A stretch of DNA of 19,830 nt from a virus (taxonomy: Duplodnaviria > Heunggongvirae > Uroviricota > Caudoviricetes): the IMG/VR virus record IMGVR_UViG_2537561977_000028; one strand, given 5' to 3'. The notes beneath the pieces were generated by a model. The model was not told where the DNA came from and did not search any database. It saw only the letters and a list, made by a program, of their open reading frames with translations. The position numbers and the translations under genes are program-made. This document shows positions 3,124 through 19,419 of this stretch, one piece after another (within the stretch, counting starts at the first letter, position 1; each line of letters opens with the position of its first letter).

Positions 3124-3298
3124 GCCGACAGGAACACCACAACCTCAAAAACGCTACAAAGATGCCCACGGAGCACTCGTTACTGTCGAAAGCGTGTCTC
3201 ACAACCGAGTGACGTTTTATCGCGACGGGTATCAATCGCCATGCGTACAACCGCTGGCACGTTTCATGAAGGAGTTCGCGGAGGTTAACAAATGCTAA
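3116..3298 (+). CDS. Small hypothetical protein, 60 aa
   Basis: ATG at 3116 lies 6 nt after a GGAGG (3105-3109) and overlaps the stop of the upstream gene. The ORF-track entry 3029..3298 is probably over-extended at its 5' end. Confidence 0.5.
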   Translation: MFKPTGTPQPQKRYKDAHGALVTVESVSHNRVTFYRDGYQSPCVQPLARFMKEFAEVNKC

Positions 3299-4359: not shown

Positions 4360-4546
4360 CTCAATTAATGCCCCTCGACTTACGTCCGCACTTCAATTAA
4401 TCGAGCAAGCAGCGACTGTCCTGGTTGCTGTCAGTCTTTCGGCTGAAGAAATGGACGCTGCTGATGTCGTGGATGCGATTAAAGCGTGCTCATCTTTGGT
4501 TAACGATGCCCGTGCAGAGCTGGTAATTCTTGGGGGTGAAAAATGA
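4352..4546 (+). CDS. Small hypothetical protein, 64 aa
   Basis: ATG at 4352 preceded by GGGGG and overlapping the upstream stop. The ORF-track entry 4295..4546 is likely over-extended. Confidence 0.5.
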   Translation: MNNSINAPRLTSALQLIEQAATVLVAVSLSAEEMDAADVVDAIKACSSLVNDARAELVILGGEK

Positions 4547-4806
4547 ATATCAACTTAATTTATCGTCATCCGCGTGAGCTGGAAATTGAATCATTGCTGG
4601 GGCGTGAAGAGCCATATCCAGACACATTCACTCCCGCAGATTGCGCGACTGAACGGCTTACCAGAGCGCGCACAGGTCTGGTTCATGTGATGAATGAGAT
4701 TATTCCCTCGGTGGGAGGGGAACAGGCGACAGTAATCAATAGCTGGCTACAAAAAGTTACCTCCCTGATAGATATCAGTTTAATCGATGTGGAGAGTGCG
4801 AAATGA
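4543..4806 (+). CDS. Small hypothetical protein, 87 aa
   Basis: Start overlaps the upstream stop (ATGA) and its own stop overlaps the next ATG at 4803; part of a translationally coupled chain. Confidence 0.55.
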   Translation: MNINLIYRHPRELEIESLLGREEPYPDTFTPADCATERLTRARTGLVHVMNEIIPSVGGEQATVINSWLQKVTSLIDISLIDVESAK

Positions 4807-6068: not shown

Positions 6069-6269
6069 TATGGCACCTGTGTTGTTCTGAGGTGAGCATA
6101 TCACCTCTGTTCAGGTGGCCAAATTCAGTAAACCACTTCACCAGCAACAGAGACAAGTTAATGATTGGCGCGGTTATGTCACTGCTCAATGGCGTACCAG
6201 AAGCTATTCAGGAAGCAGACGAATTGTTGGGCAAATATGAGTTACAGAATCATTCAGGCGAGGCGAAAC

Positions 6270-6872
6270 ATGAATAATTTCTTAACCTTCCATGCAGAAG
6301 CAACGCCTGACGGCGTAAACATCATGTACCGCAGCAACGATGGCATGACAGAACGCGTTGAGGCCGTTTCATATATTGATGCCGTAAATCGTCTGGATGC
6401 CGGGGATTATGACGATAAACCAGATGAAGGTATGTCAATACATCTTGCTATTGCCGATGGCGGCAACCAGGGATATTTCGATTACACATCACAGCATAAC
6501 GTCATTATGTGGAGATGGCTGATCGCAACAGTATTCATGCTGGAAATGAGAGAGGAAAACGGCACTGTCAGCATCATTGATGATACTGGCAATCCTTCCG
6601 AAGTGGCTGTTTATTCCAACGGCATCGTCGCCATGCCGCTGTATCCAGTAGCAGAGCGCCTCGCTATGGCAAACAACATTGAGGGCGCGATGATAGAACG
6701 TTTTGGCATCGAGTCTGGCACAGAACGCGCCATCATTTTCTACAGAGCCATGATGGATGTGGAACAAGGAGCACTGACTCCATTTGGTCGTGAAACGCTT
6801 GCTGAACTTCACAACAGCTTTATAGCTGAACTGAATGAAAACGGCATGCCAGCGGAACCAGTGACGCACTGA
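6270..6872 (+). CDS. Hypothetical protein, 200 aa
   Basis: ATG at 6270 overlaps the stop of the disrupted small gene (ATGAATAA). The ORF-track entry starts at 6165 but the coupling pattern favours 6270. No recognisable motif. Confidence 0.55.
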   Translation: MNNFLTFHAEATPDGVNIMYRSNDGMTERVEAVSYIDAVNRLDAGDYDDKPDEGMSIHLAIADGGNQGYFDYTSQHNVIMWRWLIATVFMLEMREENGTVSIIDDTGNPSEVAVYSNGIVAMPLYPVAERLAMANNIEGAMIERFGIESGTERAIIFYRAMMDVEQGALTPFGRETLAELHNSFIAELNENGMPAEPVTH

Positions 6873-6882
6873 GGATGGAGCC

Positions 6883-7224
6883 ATGATTACTAAAAATTTC
6901 CGACTGAATGCGCTGGCAAATAAGTATGCGTCGGCACTGTATAACCACATTACCTCCACCAGCGGCGGGGACTATTTCATGGTTCATGCGGACGACAAGG
7001 CCGTACGTGTGGAAATCGTCAATGGAGTAAAAGGCGTTCGCAGCCTGATCGATAGCTACACACTGGCTGCCATGAAAGTGTTCTACCCGCAGTGGGAAAC
7101 CGTGGGGATCGAGCTTCTTGATCGTTGCGTCGCTAAGGACGGATTGACTGACGTCGGGCGTGAGATATGGCAAAGCATGGTTAATGACATGGGCGCAACT
7201 GTAGCGGGAGGTTCTCATGCGTGA
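6883..7224 (+). CDS. Hypothetical protein, 113 aa
   Basis: Plus-strand ORF in the operon upstream of the primase; stop overlaps the next start. Confidence 0.55.
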   Translation: MITKNFRLNALANKYASALYNHITSTSGGDYFMVHADDKAVRVEIVNGVKGVRSLIDSYTLAAMKVFYPQWETVGIELLDRCVAKDGLTDVGREIWQSMVNDMGATVAGGSHA

Positions 7225-7588
7225 AAATGCAGAAATGGCGCTTAGCTCCGCAATCGGAGAGCAGGTGGCAAAGATTGCTGGTGCTGTGTGGATTCATAAC
7301 CTTCATTCTACTGGTGAAGAGAAAATGGCAATTCAGACGCCAGAGGGACGCACCATTACTACATCTCTGAAGCCGTCAGATGTTTGTGATCTGATTTGCG
7401 CATTCATGTACCCAGCAATGAGGACTGTCCACGGCGATAAGTGGAAACTTGCGACAACCGCTGAATTTGATATGTGGCTAAACAATGATGGCATGCTGAC
7501 TGATTACGGAATAACCAAGTGGCAGATGCTGGTTAGCCATATCGCAAACGCTATAGACCACGTGGGGTACGGTGATGCGAAACATTGA
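7217..7588 (+). CDS. Hypothetical protein, 123 aa
   Basis: Plus-strand ORF overlapping the primase start by 17 nt. Confidence 0.55.
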   Translation: MRENAEMALSSAIGEQVAKIAGAVWIHNLHSTGEEKMAIQTPEGRTITTSLKPSDVCDLICAFMYPAMRTVHGDKWKLATTAEFDMWLNNDGMLTDYGITKWQMLVSHIANAIDHVGYGDAKH

Positions 7589-10331
7589 TCTTATCCGTCA
7601 GGTTATCAGTGCGTCTGAAAACAACTGGCCTCATGTGCTGGGCTGCCTGAACATAAATGTCCCTGACTCTCCGCGCCGTCATGCTCCCTGCCCTGCATGT
7701 GGGGGCAAAGATCGATTCCGGTTCGATGACAACGGGCGCGGTAGCTTCATCTGTAATCAGTGCGGCGCTGGTGATGGGCTGGATTTAATTAAACGCGTAA
7801 ATAACTGCGACACAACAGAGGCGGCGCTTCTTGCCGCTGATGTTCTGGGTATTGATTACCGGACAACGGAAACACCAGAAGCCACCAGCCAGAAACGGGA
7901 ACAACTGGAAACCGAGCGCCAGCGACGCGAACAGGAGCGCCTGAAAAGGGCAGAGAAGGACGAACAACAAAGACGGGATACGTTTTCCCGTCAGTTTGAT
8001 GACATGCGCAGAAAGGCTGTAAACGGCAAATCTGATTATCTGGTTGCGAAAGGGGTAGGTGATTTTACATTCCCCGTGTTGCCCGATGGATCTCTGTTGC
8101 TGGCGCTGGTGGATAAATCCGGCGCAGTCACAGCAGCACAGACTATTACCTCACATGGTGAAAAAAGACTCCTGACAGGTTCAGCAAAGCGGGGGGCATA
8201 TCACGCCATAAACGCACCAGAAACAACACAGAGCATCTTAATCGCAGAAGGGCTGGCAACGGCATTATCTGCCCATTTAATTCGTCCAGAGGCGCTGACA
8301 GTGGCGGCGATTGATGCCGGGAACCTGTTATATGTCGCCCAGGTACTGCGGGATAAATATCCATCAGCACAAATCATCATTGCTGCGGATAACGACCACA
8401 GCGAAGGAAGACAAAACACGGGGAGAATAGCAGCAGAAAAAGCAGCTTTATCTGTTTCTGGATGGGTGGCATTACCCCCCACAGATCACAAAGCAGACTG
8501 GAATGATTACCACCAAAAACACGGCATTAAATGCGCCACAGAAGCGTTCAATAAGTCAATGTACCAACCACAGGGTAATGGCGTGAAACAGGAGCCACAG
8601 ACCATTGAGGGAAGCGATTTTAAGGTTATGGATACCGACCCACTGAAACCAAGAATAGAAAGCCGCGAGGATGGTATTTATTGGGTATCTCCGAGAGCTG
8701 ACAGCCAGAGTGGAGAAATCATCAATAACGAAAGCTGGTTATGTTCTCCGTTAAGCGTTATCGGTACTGGCAGAGACGATAAAGACCAGTATCTCATTCT
8801 TCGCTGGCTGTCGTTTGGTTCTGAAACGCCGACAACCGCTGCCATTCCACTGGCTGATATTGGTGAACGTGAAGGATGGCGCACACTTAAAGCTGGTGGG
8901 GTAAATGTCACGACCAAAAGCAGCCTCAGAGCAATACTGGCAGACTGGCTACAACGCAGTGGCTCTCGTGAATTGTGGCGTGTTGCTCATGCCACTGGCT
9001 GGCAATGCGGAGCGTACATCATGCCTGATGGGGAAATCATCGGAACACCTGAAAATCCTGTGCTGTTCAGCGGGAGAAGCTCAGCCGCAGCCGGATATAC
9101 CGTCTCAGGGAGCGCGAAAAGCTGGCGTGATAACGTGGCGCGTCTGGCCTTTGGTAACTATTCAATGATGACCGGGATCGGCGCAGCACTGGCAGCGCCA
9201 TTGATTGGGCTGGTGGGCGCTGACGGGTTCGGCATTCATTTCTATGAGCAGTCGAGCGCAGGTAAGACCACCACGGCAAACGTGGCGAGCAGCTTATACG
9301 GCAACCCTGATTTACTGCGGCTGACGTGGTACGGAACCGCGCTGGGGCTGGCAAATGAAGCCGCCGCCCACAATGACGGACTAATGCCGCTTGATGAAGT
9401 TGGTCAGGGCGCTGATCCTGTCAGTGTTTCACAGTCTGCCTATGCGTTATTTAACGGTGTAGGGAAACTGCAAGGCGCTAAAGATGGTGGAAACCGGGAT
9501 CTAAAACGCTGGCGTACAGTGGCAATCAGCACTGGAGAAATGGATTTAGAAACATTTATCGCTACTTCCGGGCGAAAAACCAAAGCCGGGCAACTGGTGC
9601 GACTGCTGAATATTCCGTTGAGTAAAGCAGTACGCTTTCACGATTACCAGAACGGAAAACAGCACGCAGACGCACTGAAAGACGCTTACCAGCATCACCA
9701 CGGCGCAGCCGGGCGTGAGTGGATTAAATGGCTGGCAGACCACCAGCAACAGGCAATTAAAACTGTTCGTGACTGCGAAAGCAGATGGAGAAGTCTGATC
9801 CCATCCGATTATGGTGAGCAGGTTCACCGTGTAGCCGCGCGATTTGCCATTCTGGAGGCCGCATTGCTGTTAGGCGAGGTTGTAACAGGCTGGGATGCTC
9901 AGACATGCCGTGATGCGATACAGCACAGCTATAACGCATGGTTGCGCGAGTTCGGCACAGGTAACAAAGAACATCAGCAGATTATTGAACAAACGGAGGC
10001 ATTTCTTAATGCCTATGGGCTTAGCCGTTTTGCACCATTTCCATACAGCCCGGCAGATTTGCCCATCAAAGATTTGGCCGGATACCGTCAGCGTGGAGAA
10101 CATGACGAAAGCCCAATGATTTTCTACACATTCCCGGCCACATTTGAAAAGGAGATCGCATGTGGTTTCAACGCAAAACAGTTTGCTGAAGTGTTGAAAA
10201 AAGCCGGGATGCTAACCCCACCAAACAGCGGTCGTGGATACCAAAGAAAATCACCACGTATTCAGGGACGACAAATAAACGTTTATGTACTCAATTACCA
10301 GCCAGGAGATTATAACTCATCTGAAGAATGA
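7572..10331 (+). CDS. P4-alpha-like replicative primase-helicase (zinc ribbon + TOPRIM primase + C-terminal P-loop NTPase of DUF927/D5 type), 919 aa
   Basis: Cys4 zinc ribbon CPACGGKDRFRFDD...FICNQCG; TOPRIM motifs ILIAEGLATAL and IIIAADND; P-loop-like FYEQSSAGKTTT. Likely start is the ATG at 7575 (the track starts at GTG 7572). Confidence 0.85.
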   Translation: MMRNIDLIRQVISASENNWPHVLGCLNINVPDSPRRHAPCPACGGKDRFRFDDNGRGSFICNQCGAGDGLDLIKRVNNCDTTEAALLAADVLGIDYRTTETPEATSQKREQLETERQRREQERLKRAEKDEQQRRDTFSRQFDDMRRKAVNGKSDYLVAKGVGDFTFPVLPDGSLLLALVDKSGAVTAAQTITSHGEKRLLTGSAKRGAYHAINAPETTQSILIAEGLATALSAHLIRPEALTVAAIDAGNLLYVAQVLRDKYPSAQIIIAADNDHSEGRQNTGRIAAEKAALSVSGWVALPPTDHKADWNDYHQKHGIKCATEAFNKSMYQPQGNGVKQEPQTIEGSDFKVMDTDPLKPRIESREDGIYWVSPRADSQSGEIINNESWLCSPLSVIGTGRDDKDQYLILRWLSFGSETPTTAAIPLADIGEREGWRTLKAGGVNVTTKSSLRAILADWLQRSGSRELWRVAHATGWQCGAYIMPDGEIIGTPENPVLFSGRSSAAAGYTVSGSAKSWRDNVARLAFGNYSMMTGIGAALAAPLIGLVGADGFGIHFYEQSSAGKTTTANVASSLYGNPDLLRLTWYGTALGLANEAAAHNDGLMPLDEVGQGADPVSVSQSAYALFNGVGKLQGAKDGGNRDLKRWRTVAISTGEMDLETFIATSGRKTKAGQLVRLLNIPLSKAVRFHDYQNGKQHADALKDAYQHHHGAAGREWIKWLADHQQQAIKTVRDCESRWRSLIPSDYGEQVHRVAARFAILEAALLLGEVVTGWDAQTCRDAIQHSYNAWLREFGTGNKEHQQIIEQTEAFLNAYGLSRFAPFPYSPADLPIKDLAGYRQRGEHDESPMIFYTFPATFEKEIACGFNAKQFAEVLKKAGMLTPPNSGRGYQRKSPRIQGRQINVYVLNYQPGDYNSSEE

Positions 10332-10356
10332 GCTTCTTCATGTGCGTAGAAAAGGT

Positions 10357-10467
10357 GTTGGTTCAGTTGGTTCAGTTGGTTCAATTTGTAAAGAGTATTG
10401 TTTTATAAGGATTTTATTCTTTTTATTGAACCAACACTGAACCAACAACACGGTATTTTGAACCAAC
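10357..10467. promoter_or_regulatory. Iteron cluster A (candidate replication origin): 3 tandem GTTGGTTCA, 43-bp AT-rich spacer, 3 inverted TGAACCAAC
   Basis: GTTGGTTCA at 10357-10365, 10366-10374, 10375-10383. AT-rich spacer 10384-10426. TGAACCAAC at 10427-10435, 10438-10446, 10459-10467. Lies directly after the primase gene. Confidence 0.65.
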
Positions 10468-10788
10468 ACAATGTGACTGAATTGATGCGCACAACACCTG
10501 GCTGGCATCAGAGAGTGTTTTACGAGACTTTCGTAAAATCCTGTGTACAAGGGCGTGACGTTTTTGAAAGTGAGCACTACGAAATTTTCGTAGTTCAAAA
10601 AACAGCCTCTGAGAAGTTGTTATGCCTGTTCAGCAAACCATCCGCATAGCTGATCGCGAATCAAATTACCAATGGAGCCAGAAGCAAGGGCAGAACTGAA
10701 AAGTGCCTGCCGTGAAGAGTAATGCGACACCATAAATATAGTTTTTAGAGTCCATAAAAAACCTGTCAAAACCTGACACACAGAACGA

Positions 10789-10820
10789 TGCCACCAGCTA
10801 CTGAGCGGTGGCATTTTTTT
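10789..10820 (+). terminator. Rho-independent terminator candidate
   Basis: Stem TGCCACC / GGTGGCA (7 bp) with an 11-nt loop, followed by A + T7 (10814-10820). Confidence 0.6.
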
Positions 10821-10915
10821 GTGCTATTTGTTTCATATTTTGCAATTACGATGATGAATATTGCGATTTGTGAAACTATAATAACTGTTGTTTTATACAG
10901 TTCTAAGGGGGCGTT

Positions 10916-11077
10916 ATGGCTATTTCAGTAAAGCCGGTATTGATAAGTGAGAAGCAAATGGAAGCGATAAAGAAAATTCAGGAAGAGCAGCGTAAAAAAT
11001 CAGGAATTGGAGTAGCGCCAACTCTGCATGAAATTGCTCGAGGGTTAATAGATAAGGCGCTGGCAGGCTGTATGTGA
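10916..11077 (+). CDS. Small hypothetical protein, 53 aa (below the ORF-track cutoff); possible regulator
   Basis: ATG at 10916 preceded by AGGGGG. Translation MAISVKPVLISEKQMEAIKKIQEEQRKKSGIGVAPTLHEIARGLIDKALAGCM. Sits between the terminator and the cargo operon. Confidence 0.35.
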   Translation: MAISVKPVLISEKQMEAIKKIQEEQRKKSGIGVAPTLHEIARGLIDKALAGCM

Positions 11078-11093
11078 AAATGGATGGCATCGC

Positions 11094-11495
11094 ATGGAAC
11101 TAAAATTTATTGATAACCCTGTGCGATTACAGGCCTTTCTTAACGATCCTGGCAATACCGAAAATATTGTTGAGCCGGGGCACACGTACTACATCAAGCC
11201 TGATGCGGTATATCTCGGCATCTACGAAGGATTGGTGCTGGCTGGCGTTCATGAAGTGCGTAACTTCTGGCATAGCATTGTTGAATGCCATGCGGTGTAC
11301 GACCCCGGATTCCGTGGTGAATATGCACTGCAAGGGCATCGATTATTCTGCAAATGGCTTCTCGAAAACTCACCATTCCTTAACAGCATCACTATGGTTC
11401 CTGACACCACGAAATACGGACGGGCAATTATCCGTTTGCCCGTGTTGGTCACCTTGATGATGCTTATATCAGATGTGGTAAACCCGTCGGCGTAA
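11094..11495 (+). CDS. Hypothetical protein, 133 aa; first gene of the cargo operon
   Basis: Protein-like translation. The overlapping frame ORF 11110..11457 is Trp/Cys-rich and looks non-coding. Confidence 0.6.
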   Translation: MELKFIDNPVRLQAFLNDPGNTENIVEPGHTYYIKPDAVYLGIYEGLVLAGVHEVRNFWHSIVECHAVYDPGFRGEYALQGHRLFCKWLLENSPFLNSITMVPDTTKYGRAIIRLPVLVTLMMLISDVVNPSA

Positions 11496-11538
11496 CGCTT
11501 TATCAGTTAACTCGGCAACAATATAAGGAATTCAGCGA

Positions 11539-12216
11539 ATGTTAATTACCCATATAGCTCATAAACATCTCAATCGTGCCGTATACGAAAAAGGCGGTGA
11601 TGGTGGTGCCTCTAAAGCTCAGGCGAAGGCCCAGCAGCAGGCAATTGATTTGCAGCGCGAGCAGTGGAATACGGTGATGAATAATCTCAAGCCGTATGCA
11701 GAAGTCGGATTGCCTGCTTTACAACAACTACAAGGACTGATGACTCTGGAAGGGCAGAATAAAGCCGCGAATGATTTCTTTGGTTCTGGTTTATATAAAA
11801 CACAGGCAGATCAGGCCCGTTATCAGAACCTTGTCTCAGCAGAAGCTACCGGGGGGCTTGGCTCAACAGCTACCAGTAACCAGTTATCTTCCATTGCGCC
11901 CATGCTTTATAACAATTGGCTTAGTGGGCAAATGCAAAATTATGGAAACCTGCTAAATGTCGGGATGAATGCGGCATCAGGGCAGGCAACGGCAGGGCAA
12001 AACTACGCCAATAATACCGGACAACTCTTGCAGGGGCTTGGCGCTATTCGTGCAGGTCAGGCGCAGCAGCCATCCAGTCTTGCGCGTGGTATTGGTGGGG
12101 CAGCATCAGGCGCTTTAGCGGGTGCGCAACTTGGTTCCGTTGTTCCTGGAATAGGTACTGCGGCAGGCGCTATTGGTGGTGGGCTTATTGGTCTTGTTGG
12201 GGGGCTTGGATTCTAA
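11539..12216 (+). CDS. Gln/Ala-rich protein with Gly-rich hydrophobic C-terminus, 225 aa; virion-internal/ejection-protein-like
   Basis: AAGGA RBS about 8 nt upstream. C-terminus GIGGAASGALAGAQLGSVVPGIGTAAGAIGGGLIGLVGGLGF. Stop overlaps the next start (TAATG). Confidence 0.7.
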   Translation: MLITHIAHKHLNRAVYEKGGDGGASKAQAKAQQQAIDLQREQWNTVMNNLKPYAEVGLPALQQLQGLMTLEGQNKAANDFFGSGLYKTQADQARYQNLVSAEATGGLGSTATSNQLSSIAPMLYNNWLSGQMQNYGNLLNVGMNAASGQATAGQNYANNTGQLLQGLGAIRAGQAQQPSSLARGIGGAASGALAGAQLGSVVPGIGTAAGAIGGGLIGLVGGLGF

Positions 12217-13535
12217 TGGCGACATGGCAACTTGGCGGGCTGCCTAGCATGGCACCGCAAAATGATAATGCTCCTCGTTCTTCCGTTCCTCAGCCTGTGC
12301 AGTATCAGCAGCAGCCAAACGTAGGTTTAATGGCGCTACAGGGGCTAAGAGGCGTTGCTGAGATTAATCAGCAGGCGCAAATTTCCCAGCAGCTAAAAGA
12401 ATATCAGGCACGGTTGGGTAGTGCGGTAGCTAATAATGATCGTGTTGGCGTGCAGAAGTTAATGGCCCAGTATCCCCAGTTTATGGCTGATTCTCAAAAA
12501 CAGATGGGATTCATTGATGCTGAGCAAAATCGGCAGACCGCTGACGCTGCCATGAATCTGCGTCTTGCGTCACAAACTGGAGATCCACTGACCATGCAGA
12601 AGGCCATTCAGCAGGCAAATCCAGTATTACAGCGATTTGGTCTTCCTGCTGAAGAGGTTTATCAGTCTTGGCAGAATGCCCCACAGGAATTCAACAGAAT
12701 CACTGACCTCATCCACCTCCATGCTGATCCAAATAGTTACTTTAGTGTTCAAGAGAAGCAGCAAGGGCAGAGTATTGCACAGCAGAACGCAGATACATCT
12801 GCATATAATGCTCAGGTTAATGCGGAACAGGGTAATCGGCGTCTCGATATGGAGCAGTTCAAAGTCCTATCCGATAACCAGCTACGCACGAGAGAAATGG
12901 TTCTGAAAGCACGACTTGGACGTGCTCAAAATGACATCGAGAGAGACAAGCTCAATGCTGAACTGAGCAAGGTACAGCAGGCGAAAGTGGAGAAGATGAA
13001 CGATAAAATTAATACTGTTGCAGGTAACATCGACTCCTTGAACTCTGCGCTTGAAGTGGGTCATGAACTGGCGGGAATTGTAGGGAAACATCCTTCGGCC
13101 GTTACCCGTTCGCAGAACTATAACCCCCTGACGCTGGGGTTTGGATTCCTTCCTGATGTAGCAGAAGACACACGAAGCCTACGCGCCAAAGCTGATGAAT
13201 ACAACCTAAAGGTTATTCTGCCTAGCCTCAAAGGGACTTTTGGCTCTAACCCAACCGAAGGGGAAAGGGCTGCCCTTATGCAATCTCAAAATGGCATTAA
13301 GTCAGCAACCAGCAATGAGGCATTTTTGCGAGAGTTGAATAAAGCGCAGGACGTAATTATTCGAATGCAGAAACGACAGATTGCCGGGCTCGGTATTCCT
13401 GTAACCAAATCTAAGGACGAAGAAACTGATACCAAAATGCTGTTGCAGGATCCTTCTCTGGTTAAGGATTATGTGACCGCACATGGCTATCTGCCGGAAA
13501 GTTACTATCAGGCAAAACTTAAGGGATGGCAATGA
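12216..13535 (+). CDS. Gln-rich coiled-coil protein, 439 aa; virion-internal/ejection-protein-like
   Basis: Long Q/A/N-rich heptad-like stretches (QQAQISQQLKEYQARLGSAVANN..., LDMEQFKVLSDNQLRTREMVLKARLGRAQNDIERDKLNAELSKVQQAKVEKMNDKIN). Overlaps neighbours at both ends. Confidence 0.7.
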   Translation: MATWQLGGLPSMAPQNDNAPRSSVPQPVQYQQQPNVGLMALQGLRGVAEINQQAQISQQLKEYQARLGSAVANNDRVGVQKLMAQYPQFMADSQKQMGFIDAEQNRQTADAAMNLRLASQTGDPLTMQKAIQQANPVLQRFGLPAEEVYQSWQNAPQEFNRITDLIHLHADPNSYFSVQEKQQGQSIAQQNADTSAYNAQVNAEQGNRRLDMEQFKVLSDNQLRTREMVLKARLGRAQNDIERDKLNAELSKVQQAKVEKMNDKINTVAGNIDSLNSALEVGHELAGIVGKHPSAVTRSQNYNPLTLGFGFLPDVAEDTRSLRAKADEYNLKVILPSLKGTFGSNPTEGERAALMQSQNGIKSATSNEAFLRELNKAQDVIIRMQKRQIAGLGIPVTKSKDEETDTKMLLQDPSLVKDYVTAHGYLPESYYQAKLKGWQ

Positions 13536-16252
13536 TGGCACAACTGACAGAAAAACAGAAAGCCTATTCCCGTCATCTCGATGAAAAATATGGTTTCCCA
13601 TCAGGGACGATGGAAACATTAGTTGGCAATGAATCTAGTGGTAACGGAAGTGCCGAGTCACCGAAAGGAGCTAGAGGATTTGCTCAACTGATGCCCTCAG
13701 TAATGAGTGATGCTGGTTATCGTGGAACAGATCCGCGCTCACTGCCATTTGAAAAGCAAATGGATATCGCAGCAAACCATCTCAATAAAGGAATGAAGCG
13801 ATTTGGTGATATAGGTATGGCATTGGCTGGGTATAATTCTGGCTATGCTCGTATTAATGCCGTAAGAAACGGTAAATCTACACTGCCAGATGAAACGGCT
13901 AATTACGTAAGTAAATTTGCAGATGCCGGAATAATCCCTGATGACAGTGAAATCTTGCAGTTTGCACAAACCAGTCAACATCGCAATCTTCAGCAGCCTG
14001 ACTACTCAGAGCTTGATAAAGAAATCTCTCAGGTGGGAGATATTTCTGCATGGGAAGCAAAACGTCAGCAATTTAAGAACATAGAAGCAGGACTACCAAC
14101 AGCCAGTTCATGGGAGCAGAAAAGAGCTCATTTTCTCGCCGATGAAAATGCCGGGGAACCGCAGCAGCAAGTAGCCAAGTCTAACCTTAATCCTGAGATG
14201 GAATATCTTTCGCCAGGACTGAAAGCTGCGCCAGAGCAGATGGCCAGAGGGATTGCTAATATACCGTTTGATGTAATGGACGCAGGCGTGGGGGTAGTCA
14301 ATGCGGCGCAATCAGCCGGAGCATGGGCAGCTCAGAAGCTTGGTGTGGGTGATGGTACATACACGCCCATATCACCTGTCTTTCGCCCAGTAGACCAACC
14401 TACAGATCCATACGCGCAGGCTGGTGAGCAGCTAGCACCTTACCTTATTACAGGATTAGGTGCAGGAAAGGCAGCTACCGCAGCTTCTTCAGTTGCCAAC
14501 GCTCCACGTGCTGAACGTGCGGCCACAAAGGTGGCTAGTATGTTGGCAGAAAACCTGCCAGGTACATTGGTGAACGCCCAAAAGAACGGGCAGATCAGCC
14601 CAGAAGACCTAGCAAAAGAGACAGGTATTGGCCTAGCAGGATCGCTAGGAGCACGCGCTTTAATAAAGAGCGGACAGACAGCCAGTGACGTAATGCGAGA
14701 TGTATTGCGGAGTAATACAAATCAATCAAGCTATGTGTTAGGGGCAGCAAATACTCTGGAAACCGCCAATGATGTATCGAAAGCAGCGCGTTCTGCCGTA
14801 GGCCGAGAGCATATCGCATCGCAGGCATCAAACGTCAGAGATGATGTCGCTAAGGCGGCGAAAATCACTGGTATTAATATCAACACCCTGACGCCTGGAA
14901 TGCGCTCAGGTAGTCGTGGAATTGCCCAAGCAGAAGGTGTTCTGGCATCAACTCCTGGGAATGTTCAGGATGCTCACCTTACGGCCTTCAATGAAATATC
15001 CTCAAAGTTGAATAAGCAGTTGTCTGATTTCGGTGCTGATTCTGGAAGCGCATCAGAAAAAAGCGCAGCAATTAAAGAGCGCATCATCGCGAGCCTCAGT
15101 GATATGAAAACAGCAGAGAATATGGCATGGGCAGAACTGCGAAGCACGATGCCACGCGAAAGGATGAAAATGAGTAATGGGATGGCTGTCGTCCAAGCAG
15201 AAAAAGCAGCCAATGTTCCACTCAGCCCGGAGATGAAACAGTTTCAGGCTGCCAACAACCAAGGTGGCGGCATAACCTTCGACGGGATGAAGGCATGGCG
15301 TGCTAAGTTTGCTGATGCTGAACAAGCAAACACCCGGGCAGGTAAGGCCAATGCCGCCCGGGTTGCCGGAGAAATGCGCAGAGCTATCACTGATGACATG
15401 CGCATCATGGCTGAAAAAGGAAACTTCCTCACAGAATGGCAGAAAGCTAACGATCTCTCTAAAAGTTACATTATCGCCAAACAAAATGCCGAATCTGTTT
15501 TTGGTCGAGATCTCGCATCAGACGCTATGGTAAGAAAAGGTGCCGATACGCTTAAGGCATCCGCAAACACTGGAACGGGAGCTTTTCACCGTCTTATCTC
15601 CGCGCAGCCGGAAGCAGAACGCCAACCAGCAATAGCATCTATTCTTCAGCATGCTGTGGCGCAGGGAGAGAAGGGAGGAATCGGTGAAGAGTCTGGTATC
15701 CAGTATTTTGCCAAGCTCATGACCCAGCAGAATGTAAACGCCATCAGTCGTCATGCGCCAGATCTCGGTAGAATGATGAAAGAGTTCGGTGTACTCGCTA
15801 AAGCCAGCACCAGACCGCAGCGATACGTAGAGCGCACGGGAAGAACAACTGAGGCTCTCAAAACGCTCGATTCAGGCCTTCCAAAGATCGTCGGCGTGAT
15901 TATGAACGGAGTTCAACAGTCAGGTGCGATCGCTGGAGGCTTTGGCGGTGGTGTAATTGGTTCGATTAGTGGTTTGGTTGCTGGTGGCGCGCTGAGAAAT
16001 ACTGTGGCTAAGATTGGGGCGACAAGAAGTGGTCGATATGCGATAGAGAAAGCCGTTCAGGAAGCTACAAAAGCAGTGCGCGCAGGGGCATCACCAGCAG
16101 CGATCGCCGCAGCAGAGAAACGATTTTCGGCCAATAAAATTGCCATGAAAGCAATTCGTGATGCCGTTGGGGCTGAAGAATTCGTGAAACTGACAAGGGC
16201 CGGGATTGTAGCTACCCTCAGTGGCATGAAAGATGTTAGCGAATGGGAATAG
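13526..16252 (+). CDS. Large protein with N-terminal lytic transglycosylase (SLT) domain, Ala/Gln-rich central region and Gly-rich hydrophobic C-terminal segment, 908 aa
   Basis: SLT family-1 motifs: catalytic E-S in LVGNESSGNGSAESPKGARGFAQLMP and the AYNxG-type motif ALAGYNSGYARINAV. C-terminal GAIAGGFGGGVIGSISGLVAGGAL. Real start may be the ATG at 13532 or 13535, which are better spaced from the AAGGGA. Confidence 0.75.
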   Translation: MAMMAQLTEKQKAYSRHLDEKYGFPSGTMETLVGNESSGNGSAESPKGARGFAQLMPSVMSDAGYRGTDPRSLPFEKQMDIAANHLNKGMKRFGDIGMALAGYNSGYARINAVRNGKSTLPDETANYVSKFADAGIIPDDSEILQFAQTSQHRNLQQPDYSELDKEISQVGDISAWEAKRQQFKNIEAGLPTASSWEQKRAHFLADENAGEPQQQVAKSNLNPEMEYLSPGLKAAPEQMARGIANIPFDVMDAGVGVVNAAQSAGAWAAQKLGVGDGTYTPISPVFRPVDQPTDPYAQAGEQLAPYLITGLGAGKAATAASSVANAPRAERAATKVASMLAENLPGTLVNAQKNGQISPEDLAKETGIGLAGSLGARALIKSGQTASDVMRDVLRSNTNQSSYVLGAANTLETANDVSKAARSAVGREHIASQASNVRDDVAKAAKITGININTLTPGMRSGSRGIAQAEGVLASTPGNVQDAHLTAFNEISSKLNKQLSDFGADSGSASEKSAAIKERIIASLSDMKTAENMAWAELRSTMPRERMKMSNGMAVVQAEKAANVPLSPEMKQFQAANNQGGGITFDGMKAWRAKFADAEQANTRAGKANAARVAGEMRRAITDDMRIMAEKGNFLTEWQKANDLSKSYIIAKQNAESVFGRDLASDAMVRKGADTLKASANTGTGAFHRLISAQPEAERQPAIASILQHAVAQGEKGGIGEESGIQYFAKLMTQQNVNAISRHAPDLGRMMKEFGVLAKASTRPQRYVERTGRTTEALKTLDSGLPKIVGVIMNGVQQSGAIAGGFGGGVIGSISGLVAGGALRNTVAKIGATRSGRYAIEKAVQEATKAVRAGASPAAIAAAEKRFSANKIAMKAIRDAVGAEEFVKLTRAGIVATLSGMKDVSEWE

Positions 16253-16402
16253 ACGCTCTAACTAACAAAACCATAATAGCCAAGGACGGCATACTGATAT
16301 TGAGCCAACTATCAAAATTCCATATCACATTACGAGCCTGTGGCTTACATTCGCTTACAGTGATGATAATTTATAACCACGCAATTCTTAGGTGAGATTA
16401 TC

Positions 16403-17101
16403 ATGATTAAAAATCTTCTTTTAATATTATCCCTGTCATTATTGGCTGGATGCGTACAAAAACCGTTAGTAACGGTCAATGCTTTATCTTCCGGGCAATC
16501 TGTCGGTAAGAAGTTCTTGATCATCCCCGCAAGCCAAGAACTTTGGAACACCAAACAGATTGAATACACTCAAATAGCTACGGTAGTAGCCGCCAGTTTA
16601 TCAAGCCAAGGATATACACAAGTTAAAGATGAAAAATTGGCTGACCAGGTAATTCTCTTGAACTTTTTGAGAAGCGGGGCCATTTCAAATACTCGTAATG
16701 TAACCATCCCAATATACGGGCAAACTGGTGTGAGCTCAGCAACAACGTACGGAAACTCGAACACCACGTTCAATAGTTATGGTGGTGGCTACGGTACAGC
16801 TAATACCACTGGAACGGCAACAACAGTTTATACGCCTACTTATGGAATTACTGGCGCGTATAACACAACTGTGACGGACACGTTCTACGGCGCAGGGGTG
16901 ATACTCCAGTCGTTTGATGCCAAGGCCTATCTCAATAATAGGCAGATTAATATGTTATGGAAAGTTGGTAGCTCAGTCGTCTCGCAACAGTCTGATGGAA
17001 TTGCTGATTACAAGGGGTTGGCGAGAATAGCCGCTAGCTATGCCGGGAAAAATACAGAAGGTGATATAACTTTTAATGTTGACCCTAAAGCACCAAATTA
17101 A
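16403..17101 (+). CDS. Lipoprotein, Thr/Gly/Asn/Tyr-rich, 232 aa
   Basis: Signal peptide with lipobox MIKNLLLILSLSLLAG-C. GGTGAG 6 nt before the ATG. Low-complexity central region TTYGNSNTTFNSYGGGYGTANTTGTATTVYTPTYG. Locally AT-rich compared with its neighbours. Confidence 0.7.
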   Translation: MIKNLLLILSLSLLAGCVQKPLVTVNALSSGQSVGKKFLIIPASQELWNTKQIEYTQIATVVAASLSSQGYTQVKDEKLADQVILLNFLRSGAISNTRNVTIPIYGQTGVSSATTYGNSNTTFNSYGGGYGTANTTGTATTVYTPTYGITGAYNTTVTDTFYGAGVILQSFDAKAYLNNRQINMLWKVGSSVVSQQSDGIADYKGLARIAASYAGKNTEGDITFNVDPKAPN

Positions 17102-17108
17102 CTAATAA

Positions 17109-17129
17109 GCCCGGTACGCCGGGCATTTT
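17109..17129 (+). terminator. Rho-independent terminator candidate after the lipoprotein gene
   Basis: GCCCGG-TACG-CCGGGC hairpin followed by ATTTT, 8 nt after the stop codon. Confidence 0.55.
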
Positions 17130-17244
17130 GCCCCCTATTATTCATGAATCGCTTTTTCTAGAAGGTATGCGACAAACGTTAAGTGACATTGCCTACACAT
17201 TCGGGGCGGGATTTCAAATCCGCTCCCAGTTGATGGGGCCGTTA

Positions 17245-17614
17245 CAGTACGCGCATATCCGCTTTATGTGAAACAGGAAGATTTTTCTGATATCACAGCC
17301 ACCGCAAAACACCAATTTCGTGACCAGTACGCGCGCGAGGTGTATCAGTTGCAAAATTTTTTGCAGCTGTGTCCGACCAGTACGCACGCGATGGCGGGGA
17401 GCACCATAAAACTGTTCTCTACATAAGACAGAGTGGTGGTGATGTGTTGATTATCGGCGTATATGCGCACAGGACGCGCTATGACGATGTTTTATGCACA
17501 TGTATCTGGTGTGATAAATCGCGTTACATGACCTCTCATGTTGTGCTGGTGGTTATCACGACTTTCTGAATCTGGCCTTTGCCTGATATTTTGCGACAAG
17601 TACGCGCGCGTAGC
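17245..17614. repeat. Four dispersed copies of a ~16-bp GC-rich motif GAC(C/A)AGTACGC(G/A)CGCG, partly palindromic (TACGCGCGCGTA)
   Basis: Copies at about 17245-17254, 17322-17337, 17375-17390 and 17595-17610. The region between copies 2 and 3 holds the palindrome TTGCAAAATTTTTTGCA. Confidence 0.5.
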
Positions 17615-17638
17615 ATCGACAGCATACACATTGGATAT

Positions 17639-17860
17639 TCATTTTGTGACCAATGCGATAAGTAGCGGGATAAGAATTGATAAAATCAACAGGCCGATGA
17701 TCCACTTTTGATTTTCACTGGCCTTATCTCTATTTTCATCCATCTTATCAATAATTCGACGCTCCAAGCCGTGCATATCACCGCGAATGGCAATCATCTC
17801 ATTGCGAACATCCGAGAAGTGGTTGGCTTGATGTTCAATGTGTGGCGTTCTGCCTTTCAT
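17639..17860 (-). CDS. Small tail-anchored membrane protein, 73 aa (XhlA/holin-like architecture)
   Basis: Charged N-terminal region plus a single C-terminal transmembrane segment (WIIGLLILSILIPLLIALV). GAGGA RBS upstream on the minus strand. Family name is a guess. Confidence 0.5.
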   Translation of the reverse strand: MKGRTPHIEHQANHFSDVRNEMIAIRGDMHGLERRIIDKMDENRDKASENQKWIIGLLILSILIPLLIALVTK

Positions 17861-17939
17861 TCCTGATCCTCACCTATCGTCACCACCTGCTGGTGTATAA
17901 AGGTATTGGCCCAAGCAGCTTTCCAATGGGCACTCATGT

Positions 17940-18395
17940 TTATACGCTGACCTTACAATCAATCACCGCTTTTAACTTTTCAGCATTGCTTCCCTGACGC
18001 TTCCACGCGCTGTAAATATCTTTATCCCACGCTTTACCAGCTTTTGTTTGATAGCCTGCTTCATTGATCCGTTCAGCTATCACACGCCCATTATCAAATC
18101 CCTGTCGGATGGTATCGGCAATGATCTTTATAACTGCCGTTTCGTTATATGGCTTTGGTGGGATGTTCGGCTTTCCGGCAATAAGCGACGCAGCGGCTTT
18201 TTCCATGCGCTCCACCAGCCCAAGCATTCGTGAATCAATAGACTTTTCCGGCTGTCCCAGCTTCATGCGAATCGCATCAACAAGCCAGGAGGTTTTATCC
18301 CCTCCAGAAGCGAGAACAGACCGATTAAACTCATCCTGCAATTCAGATGGGATGCGGAACGCGACCAGATTAGATTTGCTCATTGCAAAGACCAT
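17940..18395 (-). CDS. Ribbon-helix-helix (Arc/CopG-like) N-terminal domain protein, 151 aa
   Basis: N-terminus SNLVAFRIPSELQDEFNRSVLASGGDKTSWLVDAIRMKL has the RHH beta-strand/helix pattern. Co-directional with the downstream membrane-protein gene. Confidence 0.55.
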   Translation of the reverse strand: MVFAMSKSNLVAFRIPSELQDEFNRSVLASGGDKTSWLVDAIRMKLGQPEKSIDSRMLGLVERMEKAAASLIAGKPNIPPKPYNETAVIKIIADTIRQGFDNGRVIAERINEAGYQTKAGKAWDKDIYSAWKRQGSNAEKLKAVIDCKVSV

Positions 18396-18497
18396 ATCAG
18401 TGAGTAATATCCATACAGTATACCACTGTATAACACTGTTATACGCTCAAATATCAGCCAGAAAATAACGGACCAATCACAAAGCTATCGCTGTGTT

Positions 18498-18627
18498 GTT
18501 GGTTCAGAGCTGGGCTGTGTTGGTTCAAAATGAGTTGATGTTGGTTCAATATTTCAGAAAAAACACAATAAAAACAACGATATTTACAAATTGAACCAAC
18601 TGAACCAACTGAACCAACTGAACCAAC
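18498..18627. promoter_or_regulatory. Iteron cluster B: 3 spaced GTTGGTTCA, 43-bp AT-rich spacer, 4 tandem TGAACCAAC; inverted copy of cluster A
   Basis: GTTGGTTCA at 18498-18506, 18519-18527, 18540-18548. AT-rich spacer 18549-18591. TGAACCAAC at 18592-18600, 18601-18609, 18610-18618, 18619-18627. Its reverse complement aligns with cluster A. Confidence 0.65.
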
Positions 18628-18663
18628 ACCTTTTTGCTTATCTATATAATCTGAGAGGCAGAA

Positions 18664-18951
18664 ATGATAAGGGACAGGAAAGCTGAAGAGCTGGAGTCAA
18701 AAGGGCTATACCGGAGAGTTGCCGCACGATGGGCAGAAGTCATGATGCTGGCAGATGGCGATAAAGAACGTGAACATGCAGCAAACAGACGCTCTGAATG
18801 TATCCGTAAGGCGGCACGCCCACCAGCAACTACAGACAGATTCGGAGATTTAAGACAGGCAGTTAAGCGGACTCATTCGGCTCTTGGTATGGATGAGGAA
18901 GCGAGAGGGTACTTCAGGCGTTATCGCGATAAAGATTGCCAGAGACAGTAA
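18664..18951 (+). CDS. PerC-family transcriptional regulator-like protein, 95 aa
   Basis: N-terminus MIRDRKAEELESKGLYRRVAARWAEVMM matches my memory of PerC/Pch-family proteins common in P4-like islands. GAGAGG RBS; TATAAT at 18645-18650 just after the iterons. Confidence 0.55.
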   Translation: MIRDRKAEELESKGLYRRVAARWAEVMMLADGDKEREHAANRRSECIRKAARPPATTDRFGDLRQAVKRTHSALGMDEEARGYFRRYRDKDCQRQ

Positions 18952-19419
18952 TGCTCTCTCTGTTTTGGCAAATTACCCCTCACTTTGAAGGGATCGGAGC
19001 TATAAAAATGGTTTTAGGTACATTCCTCAAATTGAGGATTGTGGGAAAACCAATGGGTTAGGCTTTTCCCCCAATGGGGGTTTTCGAAAGAATCAATGGG
19101 TTAGTCCATCGTGCAAATTTGCACCCTGCCAGCCAACGCAATTTCTCGTTGGCGAAAATATCAGGTATTTACTGAACGAACGGTCTACCAGTCTGTTCAG
19201 TTACCAGTTGTACATGGCTGCTTTATGTGCAAATGGTGGTGAGAGAAAATTGTTTGGGGGTACTTTTGGGGGTATCTCCAAATACGCAATGGGGAAATGT
19301 CTTTATATATCAATGTATTTTTATTGTTTGTTTTGTTCCTATTATCGCATTTGTGCCATTGTAACCTTGGCAATTCATCAAAATACTGTTCTGACATCAG
19401 GCAGTGCAGGTGCAGCTAT

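Follow-up and report, generated by a model that had tools for sequence, protein, structure and literature searches.

A probable ribbon-helix-helix autoregulator and an interchangeable XhlA-like membrane-protein gene at the accessory end of an EcCIMP1-like satellite

EcCIMP1 is the phage-inducible chromosomal island (PICI) of E. coli MP1, and it is mobilized by the P22-like phage Kapi1, on which its dependence as a helper has been demonstrated (Pick et al. 2025, PMC11773190). The island was excised and transduced, and a superinfection-immunity phenotype was reported for it (PMC11773190). In phage P22 itself, the genes of the immI/sieA region are ordered 16 / sieA <- orf59a <- mnt / arc -> ant -> 9. 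The superinfection exclusion protein encoded there, SieA, has 164 amino acids, some four transmembrane helices and the motif FxRYPxEAxxFNK that characterizes its family (PMC10883804). A small membrane protein of another kind, XhlA of the Bacillus prophage PBSX, works jointly with the holin XhlB (PMC5589764).

The stretch of DNA described here, 19,830 nucleotides long and called the window below, is an EcCIMP1-like phage-inducible chromosomal island at tRNA-Thr. It would be a satellite of P22-like podoviruses. It has the tRNA-Thr integrase, AlpA, primase and PerC genes of such islands and is nearly identical to EcCIMP1, the DNA identity being 96-99 % over some 16 kb and 98.8 % across the 11.5 kb of window positions 6141-17619. 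The insertion site at tRNA-Thr/proA is common to both elements, as are the genes for the integrase, AlpA, AntA/B, Ash, the TOPRIM-DUF927 primase, PerC, a lipoprotein and the P22-type proteins gp14, gp7, gp20 and gp16, together with a block of repeats. The difference lies in exactly positions 17620-18600 of the window, which are missing from EcCIMP1, where an Xis-like alpA_1 gene is found in their place. This segment holds a gene for a ribbon-helix-helix (RHH) protein and a gene for a membrane protein of 73 amino acids (tm73; Table 1), both absent from EcCIMP1. The two genes thus make up a previously undescribed alternative cassette of that element. Because EcCIMP1 lacks the 73-aa gene, its superinfection immunity cannot stem from that gene.

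Table 1 Features of the RHH/tm73 segment and of related elements in the window
Feature	Position	Strand	Basis or remark
Bidirectional terminator-like hairpin	17109-17133	.	First terminator-like site past the RHH promoter, minus strand
Non-coding repeat block	17245-17607	.	Five copies, CAGTACGCGC-like; kept; far edge of the cargo slot
Gene for 73-aa tail-anchored XhlA-like membrane protein (tm73), accessory cargo	17639-17860	-	ORF; phrog_6324 (2e-11), phrog_689 'holin' (0.004)
C-terminal transmembrane anchor, W53-V71	17648-17704	-	Read from sequence (WIIGLLILSILIPLLIALV)
Remnant of long-form (104-131 aa) membrane-protein coding sequence	17861-17898	-	blastn homology and frame reading
RHH regulator gene	17940-18383	-	147 aa from kept start MSKS; ORF and family alignment
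Longest RHH ORF	17940-18395	-	151 aa; begins four codons before the kept start
C-terminal four-helix domain, residues 76-143	17955-18158	-	Almost invariant across genera (GFDNGRIIAERLNEAGYQTKAGKAWDKDIYSAWKRQ)
N-terminal ribbon-helix-helix domain, residues 1-45	18249-18383	-	hhalign, AF2, phrog_30270
Putative RHH operator	18415-18444	-	Three 10-bp tandem repeats: GTATAACAGT / GTTATACAGT / GGTATACTGT
Extended -10 (TGgTATACT)	18417-18425	-	Overlapped by the last repeat of the putative RHH operator
Iteron cluster B	18498-18627	.	GTTGGTTCA; three forward and four reverse; RHH gene on one side, perC on the other
Iteron cluster A	10357-10467		Same 9-mer as cluster B; directly after the primase gene

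An earlier, sequence-only reading of this DNA had described an RHH protein of 151 aa followed by a small tail-anchored, XhlA-like protein, both encoded by genes that run away from an iteron cluster towards the repeat block. Much of this description stands. The ORF list and the sequence bear out two co-directional minus-strand genes with 79 bp separating the end of the RHH reading frame from the start codon of the 73-aa gene, and their orientation relative to cluster B and the repeats is as described. The nature of both proteins was likewise supported, that of the upstream one by a profile alignment with Arc and Mnt and by covariation with its putative operator, that of the downstream one by its sequence and by the sub-threshold matches of its relatives to the XhlA profile, as set out below. 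The length of 151 aa holds for the longest ORF only: an alignment of 25 family members and the RefSeq annotation, with a coding sequence of 444 bp, place the true start at the second ATG (18383), which gives 147 aa.

Judged from its sequence, the upstream protein is most likely of the Arc/Mnt ribbon-helix-helix type. An hhalign comparison with an Arc/Mnt alignment put residues 1-47 in register (E 3e-4, probability 40 %), with VAFRIP of the island protein pairing with FNFRMP, and phrog_30270 matched residues 5-49. In the AF2 model, helices were predicted at residues 13-25 and 30-42, the N-terminus of the monomer model being of low confidence. No curated RHH profile was hit, as no Pfam family matched at E <= 1; the RHH profile, run against PDB sequences, found noise only and no solved-structure match, sequence similarity to the CopG and ParG families was not detected, and tblastn returned no match to the protein in cultured phages. 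The protein resembles the Arc, Mnt and CopG repressors in its beta-alpha-alpha N-terminus, in the putative operator repeats overlapping its own promoter and in the covariation of strand and operator. It differs from them in its length, in a long linker helix and in the C-terminal four-helix domain, which is folded and invariant. Used alone as a query, this domain revealed no other domain architecture and no detectable relatives; it may serve to contact DNA or another protein. Across the Enterobacterales, 357 RHH homologues were found that are 60-80 % identical, none of them annotated, and both the RHH gene and the 73-aa gene are listed as "hypothetical protein" in hundreds of E. coli genomes. 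At their accessory end, EcCIMP1-like satellites frequently have the RHH gene as a core gene.

The repeats of the putative operator are kept in front of every intact member of the RHH family, at a distance of about 35 bp. Of the 43 IMG/VR loci with the operator, 42 have an RHH homologue immediately behind it, and the remaining one stops just past the site. Two types could be distinguished: a beta-strand with NL[VI]A goes with the operator TATAAC..TTATAC (22/22 loci), and one with xSVT goes with GTCTTAC..GTCTTAC (19/19 loci). Operator type and beta-strand residues 5, 6 and 8 thus change together in all 41 loci, but there are two states tracking two clades, and the covariation represents roughly one evolutionary event. 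In the hhalign alignment, the switching residues 6 and 8 pair with His6 and Asn8 of Mnt, which are DNA-contacting residues of that repressor. The operator occurs once in the window, and further copies were sought in the window and in cultured phages with none found, so that there is no sign of control by the RHH protein over the helper or the alpA/primase operon. A helper-responsive element was not found either. A scan for consensus promoters gave no sigma-70 site in 17100-19100; promoters of the extended -10 type proposed here escape such a scan.

On these grounds the RHH protein is most likely an autoregulator. It would bind two to three of the 10-bp tandem repeats abutting or overlapping the extended -10 in front of its gene, and in this way would hold itself and the genes reached by read-through at a steady low expression in the integrated state. 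In the interval from the RHH gene to the small gene, no terminator was detected. As no promoter arrived with the 73-aa gene and no terminator parts it from the RHH gene, the two are probably co-transcribed from the RHH promoter.

Residues 1-52 of the 73-aa protein are charged and heptad-like, and the uncharged hydrophobic stretch W53-V71 is followed by TK only, which makes it a C-terminal tail anchor. This anchor is the best-kept part of the protein family (KW..L..S.L.P....L..K). The product would be a coiled coil that faces the cytoplasm and is held in the inner membrane by its C-terminal helix. With its small size, coiled-coil N-terminus and single C-terminal transmembrane helix, all read from the sequence, it has the topology of PBSX XhlA, and there is weak profile similarity as well: 18 of 20 family members match the Pfam XhlA profile (PF10779), all of them under the gathering score, with 15-23 bits in the relatives against a cut-off of 34.7 and a best E-value in the family of 7.8e-7. 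The protein of the window itself had no Pfam match at E <= 1, PF10779 included. It differs from XhlA in that its gene lies outside a lysis cassette with no XhlB holin or endolysin as a neighbour, and in that its family is found in the immunity regions of Gram-negative prophages. It is also unrelated to SieA, a polytopic inner-membrane protein of about 160-200 aa in its family; it has one transmembrane helix and lacks the motif. Scans of both the RHH and the 73-aa protein with Pfam, NCBIfam and PADLOC gave no toxin, antitoxin or other match above noise. The gene is carried by 169 E. coli genomes, in 166 of which the junction with the RHH gene is intact, and among cultured phages the protein matches those of three Klebsiella phages only. 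Its dN/dS of 0.21-0.22, obtained in comparisons with a 66-aa allele and with a prophage homologue, indicates that the gene is under purifying selection.

The likely source of the 73-aa gene, a 5'-shortened copy, is a moron that P22-like and siphovirus prophages have in their immI-type (mnt/arc/ant) regions. In a P22-like prophage gene, the C-terminal 65 aa of the product are 85 % identical to the 73-aa protein, and blastn homology covers 17641-17898 and so reaches beyond the start codon of the island gene into the remnant of a long form, whose reading frame ends in a TGA four codons before the ATG. Phages also have natural 70-aa short forms, which begin at the same Met as the 73-aa protein. 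Homologues in P22-like prophages (loci L056, L059 and L111-L116) are flanked by gene 16 on one side and ant/gene 9 on the other, and they follow an mnt-like gene. In P22 the corresponding position is held by sieA; this is a positional likeness only and not homology. Most of the 71 IMG/VR loci with homologues fall in mnt/arc/ant-type regions of siphovirus-type prophage contigs, i.e., contigs of 40-55 kb with a tape-measure gene. Some 67 phage loci hold the small gene without the island RHH gene. Its usual phage partner, situated upstream, is X1 (a Zn-ribbon-like protein) or X2, both of which are missing in the window, so that the island copy may act differently, or weakly. The prophage partners X1, X2 and Mnt-like showed no similarity to the island RHH protein. 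Sister islands carry, on the same strand, a SieA-like gene with the motif RYPGEA. With homologues at the sieA position and this gene in related islands, the hint of an exclusion function in the sequence-only reading fits the context.

The arrangement in the island recalls that of P22 in several respects. An RHH repressor gene is followed by small genes of the lysogeny type that converge on the ejection genes 7-20-16, and the 73-aa homologues occur in the immI/sieA region of P22-like prophages. The island RHH protein, on the other hand, shares only its fold with Mnt and has both an extra C-terminal domain and an operator of tandem direct repeats, and an arc/ant pair does not adjoin the two island genes.

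The distribution of the two genes does not agree with the earlier suggestion that they form one module. In 49 of 49 loci from other genera, the RHH gene is found without the small gene beside it and with no co-directional partner, and about half of its E. coli carriers also lack the small gene (361 E. coli genomes with the RHH gene, 169 with the 73-aa gene). The homology in E. coli breaks in the last 11-15 codons of the RHH gene. In two loci (L052 and L053), Abi takes the place of the 73-aa gene, and in other genera Abi_2, Fic, Trypsin_2, M78, Panacea or Schlafen genes were found in the slot. The repeat block on the far side is kept irrespective of which of tm73, Abi and alpA_1 occupies the slot, and 545 E. 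coli genomes have it. A structured RNA was considered for the repeat block and found no support (fold z = -0.5, no Rfam match there). The RHH protein is hence not a dedicated partner of the 73-aa protein, and the 73-aa gene is interchangeable cargo. The slot downstream of the RHH gene would be a recombination-prone site bounded by the kept repeats, its content varying by island from Abi_2, Fic, Panacea or M78-type toxin-antitoxin parts to Schlafen, the Xis-like AlpA_1 and the 73-aa gene. A variable slot between kept flanks, with Abi_2, Fic, toxin-antitoxin-like and Schlafen genes, is also seen in the accessory or defence hotspots of P4-like satellites and PICIs; the difference is that the flanks are here a probably autoregulated RHH gene and a repeat block. 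A hotspot flanked in this way was not found in the literature searched and, to our knowledge, has not been described before.

Several other explanations of the two genes were weighed. Roles in replication and partition are common among RHH proteins, and the RHH protein might, like CopG, ParG, omega or P4 Cnr, act as a replication, copy-number or partition factor at the adjacent crr-like iterons, with the small gene as an unrelated passenger. Iterons do occur immediately ahead of the RHH promoter, both in the window and in 6 of 17 loci from other genera (those with a full-length RHH gene and the 3' end of the primase gene), and the second cluster of the same 9-mer after the primase gene gives a layout like that of P4 ori/crr. 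They are missing at this position in the other 11 loci, however, 4 of which have the complete set next to the primase only, and they are found alongside both types of RHH operator, which excludes iteron cluster B as the operator of the RHH protein. The kept element beside the RHH gene is its own tandem-repeat operator, excision and transduction of EcCIMP1 proceed in the absence of the gene, and no similarity to CopG or ParG was seen. A role of this kind is therefore unlikely, and the replication or partition family that the sequence-only reading had named as the outcome speaking against it was not what emerged, the iterons being independent of the RHH gene and of operator type. It is very unlikely that the 73-aa ORF is a decaying, functionless piece of a phage gene left by recombination. 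Its shortened 5' end with the in-frame stop upstream, the absence of the usual phage partner gene and the existence of several frameshifted variants (e.g., P0125, P0137 and P0148) are what decay would produce, but the low dN/dS, an ORF without disruption in most of the 169 E. coli carriers, a separate intact allele of 66 aa and the phage short forms starting at the same Met argue for a maintained protein.

Neither a toxin-antitoxin pair nor a lysis cassette or helper-triggered module, as proposed from the initial inspection, was indicated by the data, and no holin or endolysin partner was seen. An accessory function in lysis, in which the holin- or XhlA-like protein would aid permeabilization or the timing of lysis after helper induction while the RHH protein keeps it off, could draw on the family matches to Pfam XhlA, phrog_689 ('holin') and phrog_1193 ('hemolysin'), on the XhlA topology and on the precedent of PBSX. 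It is made quite unlikely by the low scores of those matches and their absence for the window protein, and by the lack of an adjoining XhlB-type holin or endolysin both in the window and in the phage contexts, where the copies reside in mnt/arc/ant regions by X1 and tail genes and outside lysis cassettes. Moreover, the operator of the RHH gene is a private one, an element responding to the helper was not found, and the 73-aa gene is dispensable for mobilization because EcCIMP1 does without it. That the RHH protein would be antitoxin and repressor to a membrane-protein toxin, as a toxin-antitoxin or abortive-infection pair, is highly improbable. The order of the genes, the short spacer and the missing terminator are reminiscent of some type II and membrane-toxin modules, and toxin-antitoxin or Abi genes occupy the slot in other islands; yet the RHH gene without a co-directional partner in other genera and in many E. 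coli carriers, the small protein in the phage loci that lack the island RHH gene, and an RHH C-terminus that is folded and invariant instead of forming a disordered toxin-binding tail all speak against it, as does the absence of toxin or antitoxin matches in PADLOC, Pfam and NCBIfam. A type II system was rejected for want of a co-inherited adjacent toxin gene and of any known toxin or defence family. A 73-aa toxin restrained by the RHH protein is thus unlikely.

The reading to which we lean, with modest confidence and on the strength of gene context and comparative sequence data, is that of a satellite RHH autorepressor next to an exchangeable cargo gene that came from an immI-type phage region and has an envelope role during lysogeny. 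Expressed in the lysogenic state, the 73-aa protein may hinder incoming P22-like phages or otherwise modulate steps at the interface of phage and envelope; from its genomic context, an exclusion role is plausible. A bolder version, tentative and on balance doubtful, would see the slot, together with the RHH gene and the private operator, as an undescribed regulated accessory or defence hotspot of a widespread family of P22-type satellites. In this version the XhlA-like protein would be a new, very small exclusion factor from the sieA position that blocks the gp7/gp20/gp16 conduit of incoming P22-like phages, the satellite supplying divergent ejection proteins of its own.

In conclusion, a satellite regulator has been told apart from the exchangeable cargo next to it, a pair that would otherwise probably be filed as a toxin-antitoxin or holin pair. 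For an uncharacterized family present in hundreds of enterobacterial genomes, the analysis provides a candidate operator/repressor pair with two natural specificity classes. It also locates the cargo slot of EcCIMP1-like islands, in which Abi, Fic, toxin-antitoxin-like, SieA-like and XhlA-like genes are swapped, and it documents that satellites acquire genes located in the immunity/exclusion region of helper-type phages. Should the 73-aa protein prove to exclude P22-like phages, work on the entry of podovirus DNA would gain a compact new tool.

The island in the window is of a known kind, an EcCIMP1-like phage-inducible chromosomal island (PICI). It is an integrative element of ~19 kb at the tRNA-Thr adjoining proA, in which an integrase, an AlpA-type HTH protein, AntA/B, Ash and a TOPRIM-DUF927 primase are followed by P22-type gp14 (DUF2824), gp7, gp20 and an SLT-gp16 fusion and, at the end, by a lipoprotein, the gene for a small 73-aa membrane protein with that for a ribbon-helix-helix (RHH) protein, and PerC. 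Identity to EcCIMP1 of E. coli MP1, of which excision and transduction by the P22-like phage Kapi1 were shown experimentally (PMC11773190), is 96-99% across ~16 kb. EcCIMP1 precisely lacks the segment with the RHH and small genes and has a Xis-like alpA_1 there instead (3262-4599 in the compared locus L062): homology ends 20 bp past the small-gene stop and restarts inside iteron cluster B, three forward iterons of which are missing with the two genes. As EcCIMP1 is without both, they are dispensable for helper-dependent mobilisation; without the RHH gene, EcCIMP1 does not represent the ~65% of islands in E. coli that have it.

The P22-type virion ejection proteins are encoded by the satellite itself, the SLT-gp16 fusion (908 aa) joining a lytic transglycosylase domain to gp16. 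The DUF2824/gp14 ORF has 133 aa as opposed to 153 aa in near-identical islands, and the tblastn match breaks in two behind residue 115, pointing to a frameshift close to the 3' end of this copy. The lipoprotein 3' of the ejection genes (lipobox LLAGC) shows faint similarity to the TraT surface-exclusion lipoprotein and DUF4136 (E about 0.06-0.09); its 100% conservation in EcCIMP1 makes it a candidate source of the superinfection immunity reported there. The isrK and C4 RNAs in the ash/antirepressor region resemble a c4-icd-ant immunity module of the P1/P7 type, here carried by a satellite. PerC, divergent from the RHH gene with iterons between, is only 53% identical to its EcCIMP1 homologue, which was reported as a repressor, not an activator, of LEE1 (PMC11773190).

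Features of the island discussed in the text
Feature	Position	Strand	Remarks
isrK Hfq-binding RNA	3673-3750	+	Rfam
C4 antisense RNA	3813-3900	+	Rfam
Iteron cluster A	10357-10467		3+3 copies of GTTGGTTCA
Ejection genes (gp14/DUF2824, gp7, gp20, SLT-gp16)	11094-16252	+	
DUF2824/gp14 ORF	11094-11495	+	
Lipoprotein	16403-17101	+	232 aa
First terminator-like hairpin on the strand of the RHH and small genes	17109-17133	-	
Repeat block	17245-17607		Non-coding; five CAGTACGCGC-type repeats
Segment absent from EcCIMP1	17620-18600		
Small gene	17639-17860	-	73 aa
RHH ORF	17940-18395	-	Start at 18383 (MSKS...), 147 aa
Putative RHH operator	18415-18444		GTATAACAGT GTTATACAGT GGTATACTGT; extended -10 TGgTATACT
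Iteron cluster B	18498-18627		3+4 copies of GTTGGTTCA
PerC-family gene	18664-18951	+	

Both minus-strand ORFs of the sequence-only reading are present, 79 bp apart, and they read away from the cluster B iterons towards the repeat block as described. The larger one stands as a gene but not at the proposed 151 aa, its real start having been placed by an alignment of 25 relatives and by the RefSeq annotation of near-identical E. coli loci. No terminator-like hairpin was found between the RHH gene and the small gene.

The RHH protein has 357 relatives of ~143 aa across the Enterobacterales (60-80% identity), none of them annotated, and was recognised by none of the curated libraries. Its proposed RHH-like character was borne out by profile comparison with proteins from P22 and prophage loci, in which residues 1-47 align in register with Arc/Mnt (E 3e-4, probability 40%). 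In the AF2 model, the expected two helices lead into a long helix and a confidently predicted C-terminal four-helix domain. The protein would be a new, uncharacterised Arc/Mnt-type autoregulator with an added domain. Just 5' of every intact family member, 10-bp direct repeats, two or three in number, are conserved with an adjoining extended -10; the sole operator-less locus carries a decayed RHH copy. Repeats of the TATAAC..TTATAC class occur with the β-strand NL[VI]A (22/22 loci) and those of the GTCTTAC..GTCTTAC class with xSVT (19/19 loci), but the two states track two clades, so that the covariation counts as roughly a single co-change. Residues 6 and 8, those that switch, align in the profile comparison with His6 and Asn8 of Mnt, which contact its operator. 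The site is unique, no further copy being found within the window. All 43 exact matches in IMG/VR lie in satellite-like contigs, 42 of them directly 5' of an RHH homologue while the 43rd locus stops at the site; none was found in cultured phages. No sign was found of RHH control of the helper or of the island alpA/primase genes. An autoregulated RHH promoter would be the simplest reading, and the comparisons support a predicted Arc/Mnt-like protein for which a private tandem-repeat operator, co-varying with it, lies at the extended -10 of its own promoter; Arc/Mnt-like character with autoregulation is considered probable.

The iterons invite another explanation, in which the RHH protein would serve replication or partition at these crr-like sites. 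The 9-mer forms inverted blocks in two clusters 8.1 kb apart, the first lying directly after the primase stop, an arrangement that resembles the P4 ori/crr layout. The iterons indeed adjoin the RHH gene, but in some islands only: among 17 loci with a full-length RHH gene and a primase 3' end, clusters occur at both places in 6, all 9-11 copies lie beside the primase only in 4, and the 8-mer is entirely absent in 7. By this test, the RHH gene and the iterons adjoin one another in part of the islands but do not form a functional unit. With a putative operator of its own for the RHH protein and EcCIMP1 functioning without the gene, a role in replication or partition is unlikely. The iterons were also rejected as RHH sites, as the 8-mer was found with both operator types across genera and in no fixed adjacency.

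Among 5,426 complete E. coli genomes, the repeat block was found in 545, the RHH gene in 361 and the small gene in 169, in 166 of these with an intact RHH junction. The segment bounded by the RHH gene and the repeat block is variable. In RHH-only E. coli islands, homology is lost at the last 11-15 RHH codons and the slot is filled by an Abi family gene; in other genera, the genes adjoining the RHH gene include those for Abi_2, Fic, a trypsin-like peptidase, an M78 peptidase (ImmA/IrrE), a protein with a Panacea domain and a Schlafen/AlbA_2 protein. In 49 other-genus loci, the far end of the primase island is taken by this gene, which is convergent with the primase operon; most of these loci lack a co-directional gene after it, the next gene usually being convergent. 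These patterns support a variable slot downstream of the RHH gene, which behaves as an accessory/defence hotspot with the 73-aa gene as one interchangeable occupant. The repeat block, conserved at 82-96% in its 545 E. coli genomes regardless of the slot gene, showed neither a significant RNA fold nor an Rfam match; it could be a pac/recognition site or a recombination boundary.

Residues 1-52 of the small protein are charged and heptad-like and are followed by the hydrophobic WIIGLLILSILIPLLIALV and a terminal TK, and thus by a C-terminal tail anchor, as had been proposed. Its own matches are limited to phrog_6324, of unknown function, and a weak one to phrog_689 'holin'. An exhaustive search yielded a small family of 28 clusters; most members are 104-131 aa long, their N-terminus varying and being followed by a Gly-rich stretch, a coiled coil and DENQKW-TM-K, the highly conserved C-terminal end. 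Pfam XhlA was matched by 18/20 members, every score being below the gathering cut-off, and phrog_1193 'hemolysin' by 14/20. The small protein is a distant, uncharacterised moron of XhlA-like type. Over the final 65 residues of a prophage protein of 117 aa, the island copy shows 85% identity; at the DNA level, homology runs 38 bp 5' of the ATG, through coding sequence in the prophage, the frame of which is closed in the island by an in-frame TGA. Short forms that begin with this Met occur in phages too.

That the RHH and small genes form one module, as the sequence-only reading had it, was not upheld: conservation tests speak for an accidental juxtaposition in a hotspot. A toxin-antitoxin or Abi pair is contradicted by the same tests, a small-gene homologue being found in 0/49 non-E. 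coli loci, and is hardly credible; that the small gene is cargo is very probable. Of the proposed lysis module, the similarity to XhlA remains, weak as it is. In PBSX, the membrane protein XhlA acts jointly with two partners, the holin XhlB and the endolysin XlyA (PMC5589764). The island has a counterpart of neither and offers the wrong genomic context, so a lysis accessory is quite improbable. A decaying fragment is very doubtful, being contradicted by allele conservation and by a dN/dS of 0.21-0.22, which argues that the gene is functional. A tail-anchored XhlA-like protein in the slot, of phage immI origin and under purifying selection, is supported by sequence comparison.

In P22-like prophages, the homologue is found where P22 has orf59a and sieA, between gene 16 and ant/gene 9; its operon reads mnt-like RHH, X, homologue. 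In ~60 siphovirus-type prophage contigs (40-55 kb), it adjoins Mnt/Arc and Ant/Bro-N genes just 5' of the tape-measure gene and follows X1, a Zn-ribbon-like protein. The gene before the XhlA-like one in phages is usually that of X1 (119-123 aa, two CxxC pairs), frequently with start and stop overlapping, and in a few loci that of X2, an unrelated 135-138-aa protein (L056 5637-6008, L055 3026-3385 and about 45 IMG/VR loci). The regular partner of the small gene is therefore X1 or X2, absent from the island, which points to a two-gene phage module of which the island would have kept the second half only.

SieA, a polytopic protein of 164 aa with the motif FxRYPxEAxxFNK, blocks the gp20/gp16 DNA-delivery conduit (PMC10883804). 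The 73-aa protein is not a SieA. Some sister islands (L107 6744-7358; also L108) encode a SieA-like membrane protein of 204 aa with an RYPGEA motif, 29% identical to P22 SieA, co-directional with the RHH and 73-aa genes and beyond the repeat block. Others encode a periplasmic protein whose N-terminus, by inspection, resembles another prophage gene of the immI/sie region. The immI/sie region of helper-type phages was evidently the source from which the accessory end of the island was stocked.

The RHH protein would repress its own promoter, and the small gene, having come without a promoter and with no terminator before it, would be transcribed by read-through from there, constitutively and at a buffered level while the island is integrated. 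Its product may act on phage-related envelope events at the inner membrane; the most plausible function, albeit a tentative one, is to exclude incoming P22-like phages. What the analysis offers is a predicted operator/repressor pair with two specificity classes, the definition of a cargo slot and a link to the immI/sie region of the helper. With its own DNA-delivery conduit and sie-type genes on the other side, the satellite is worth studying for that alone.
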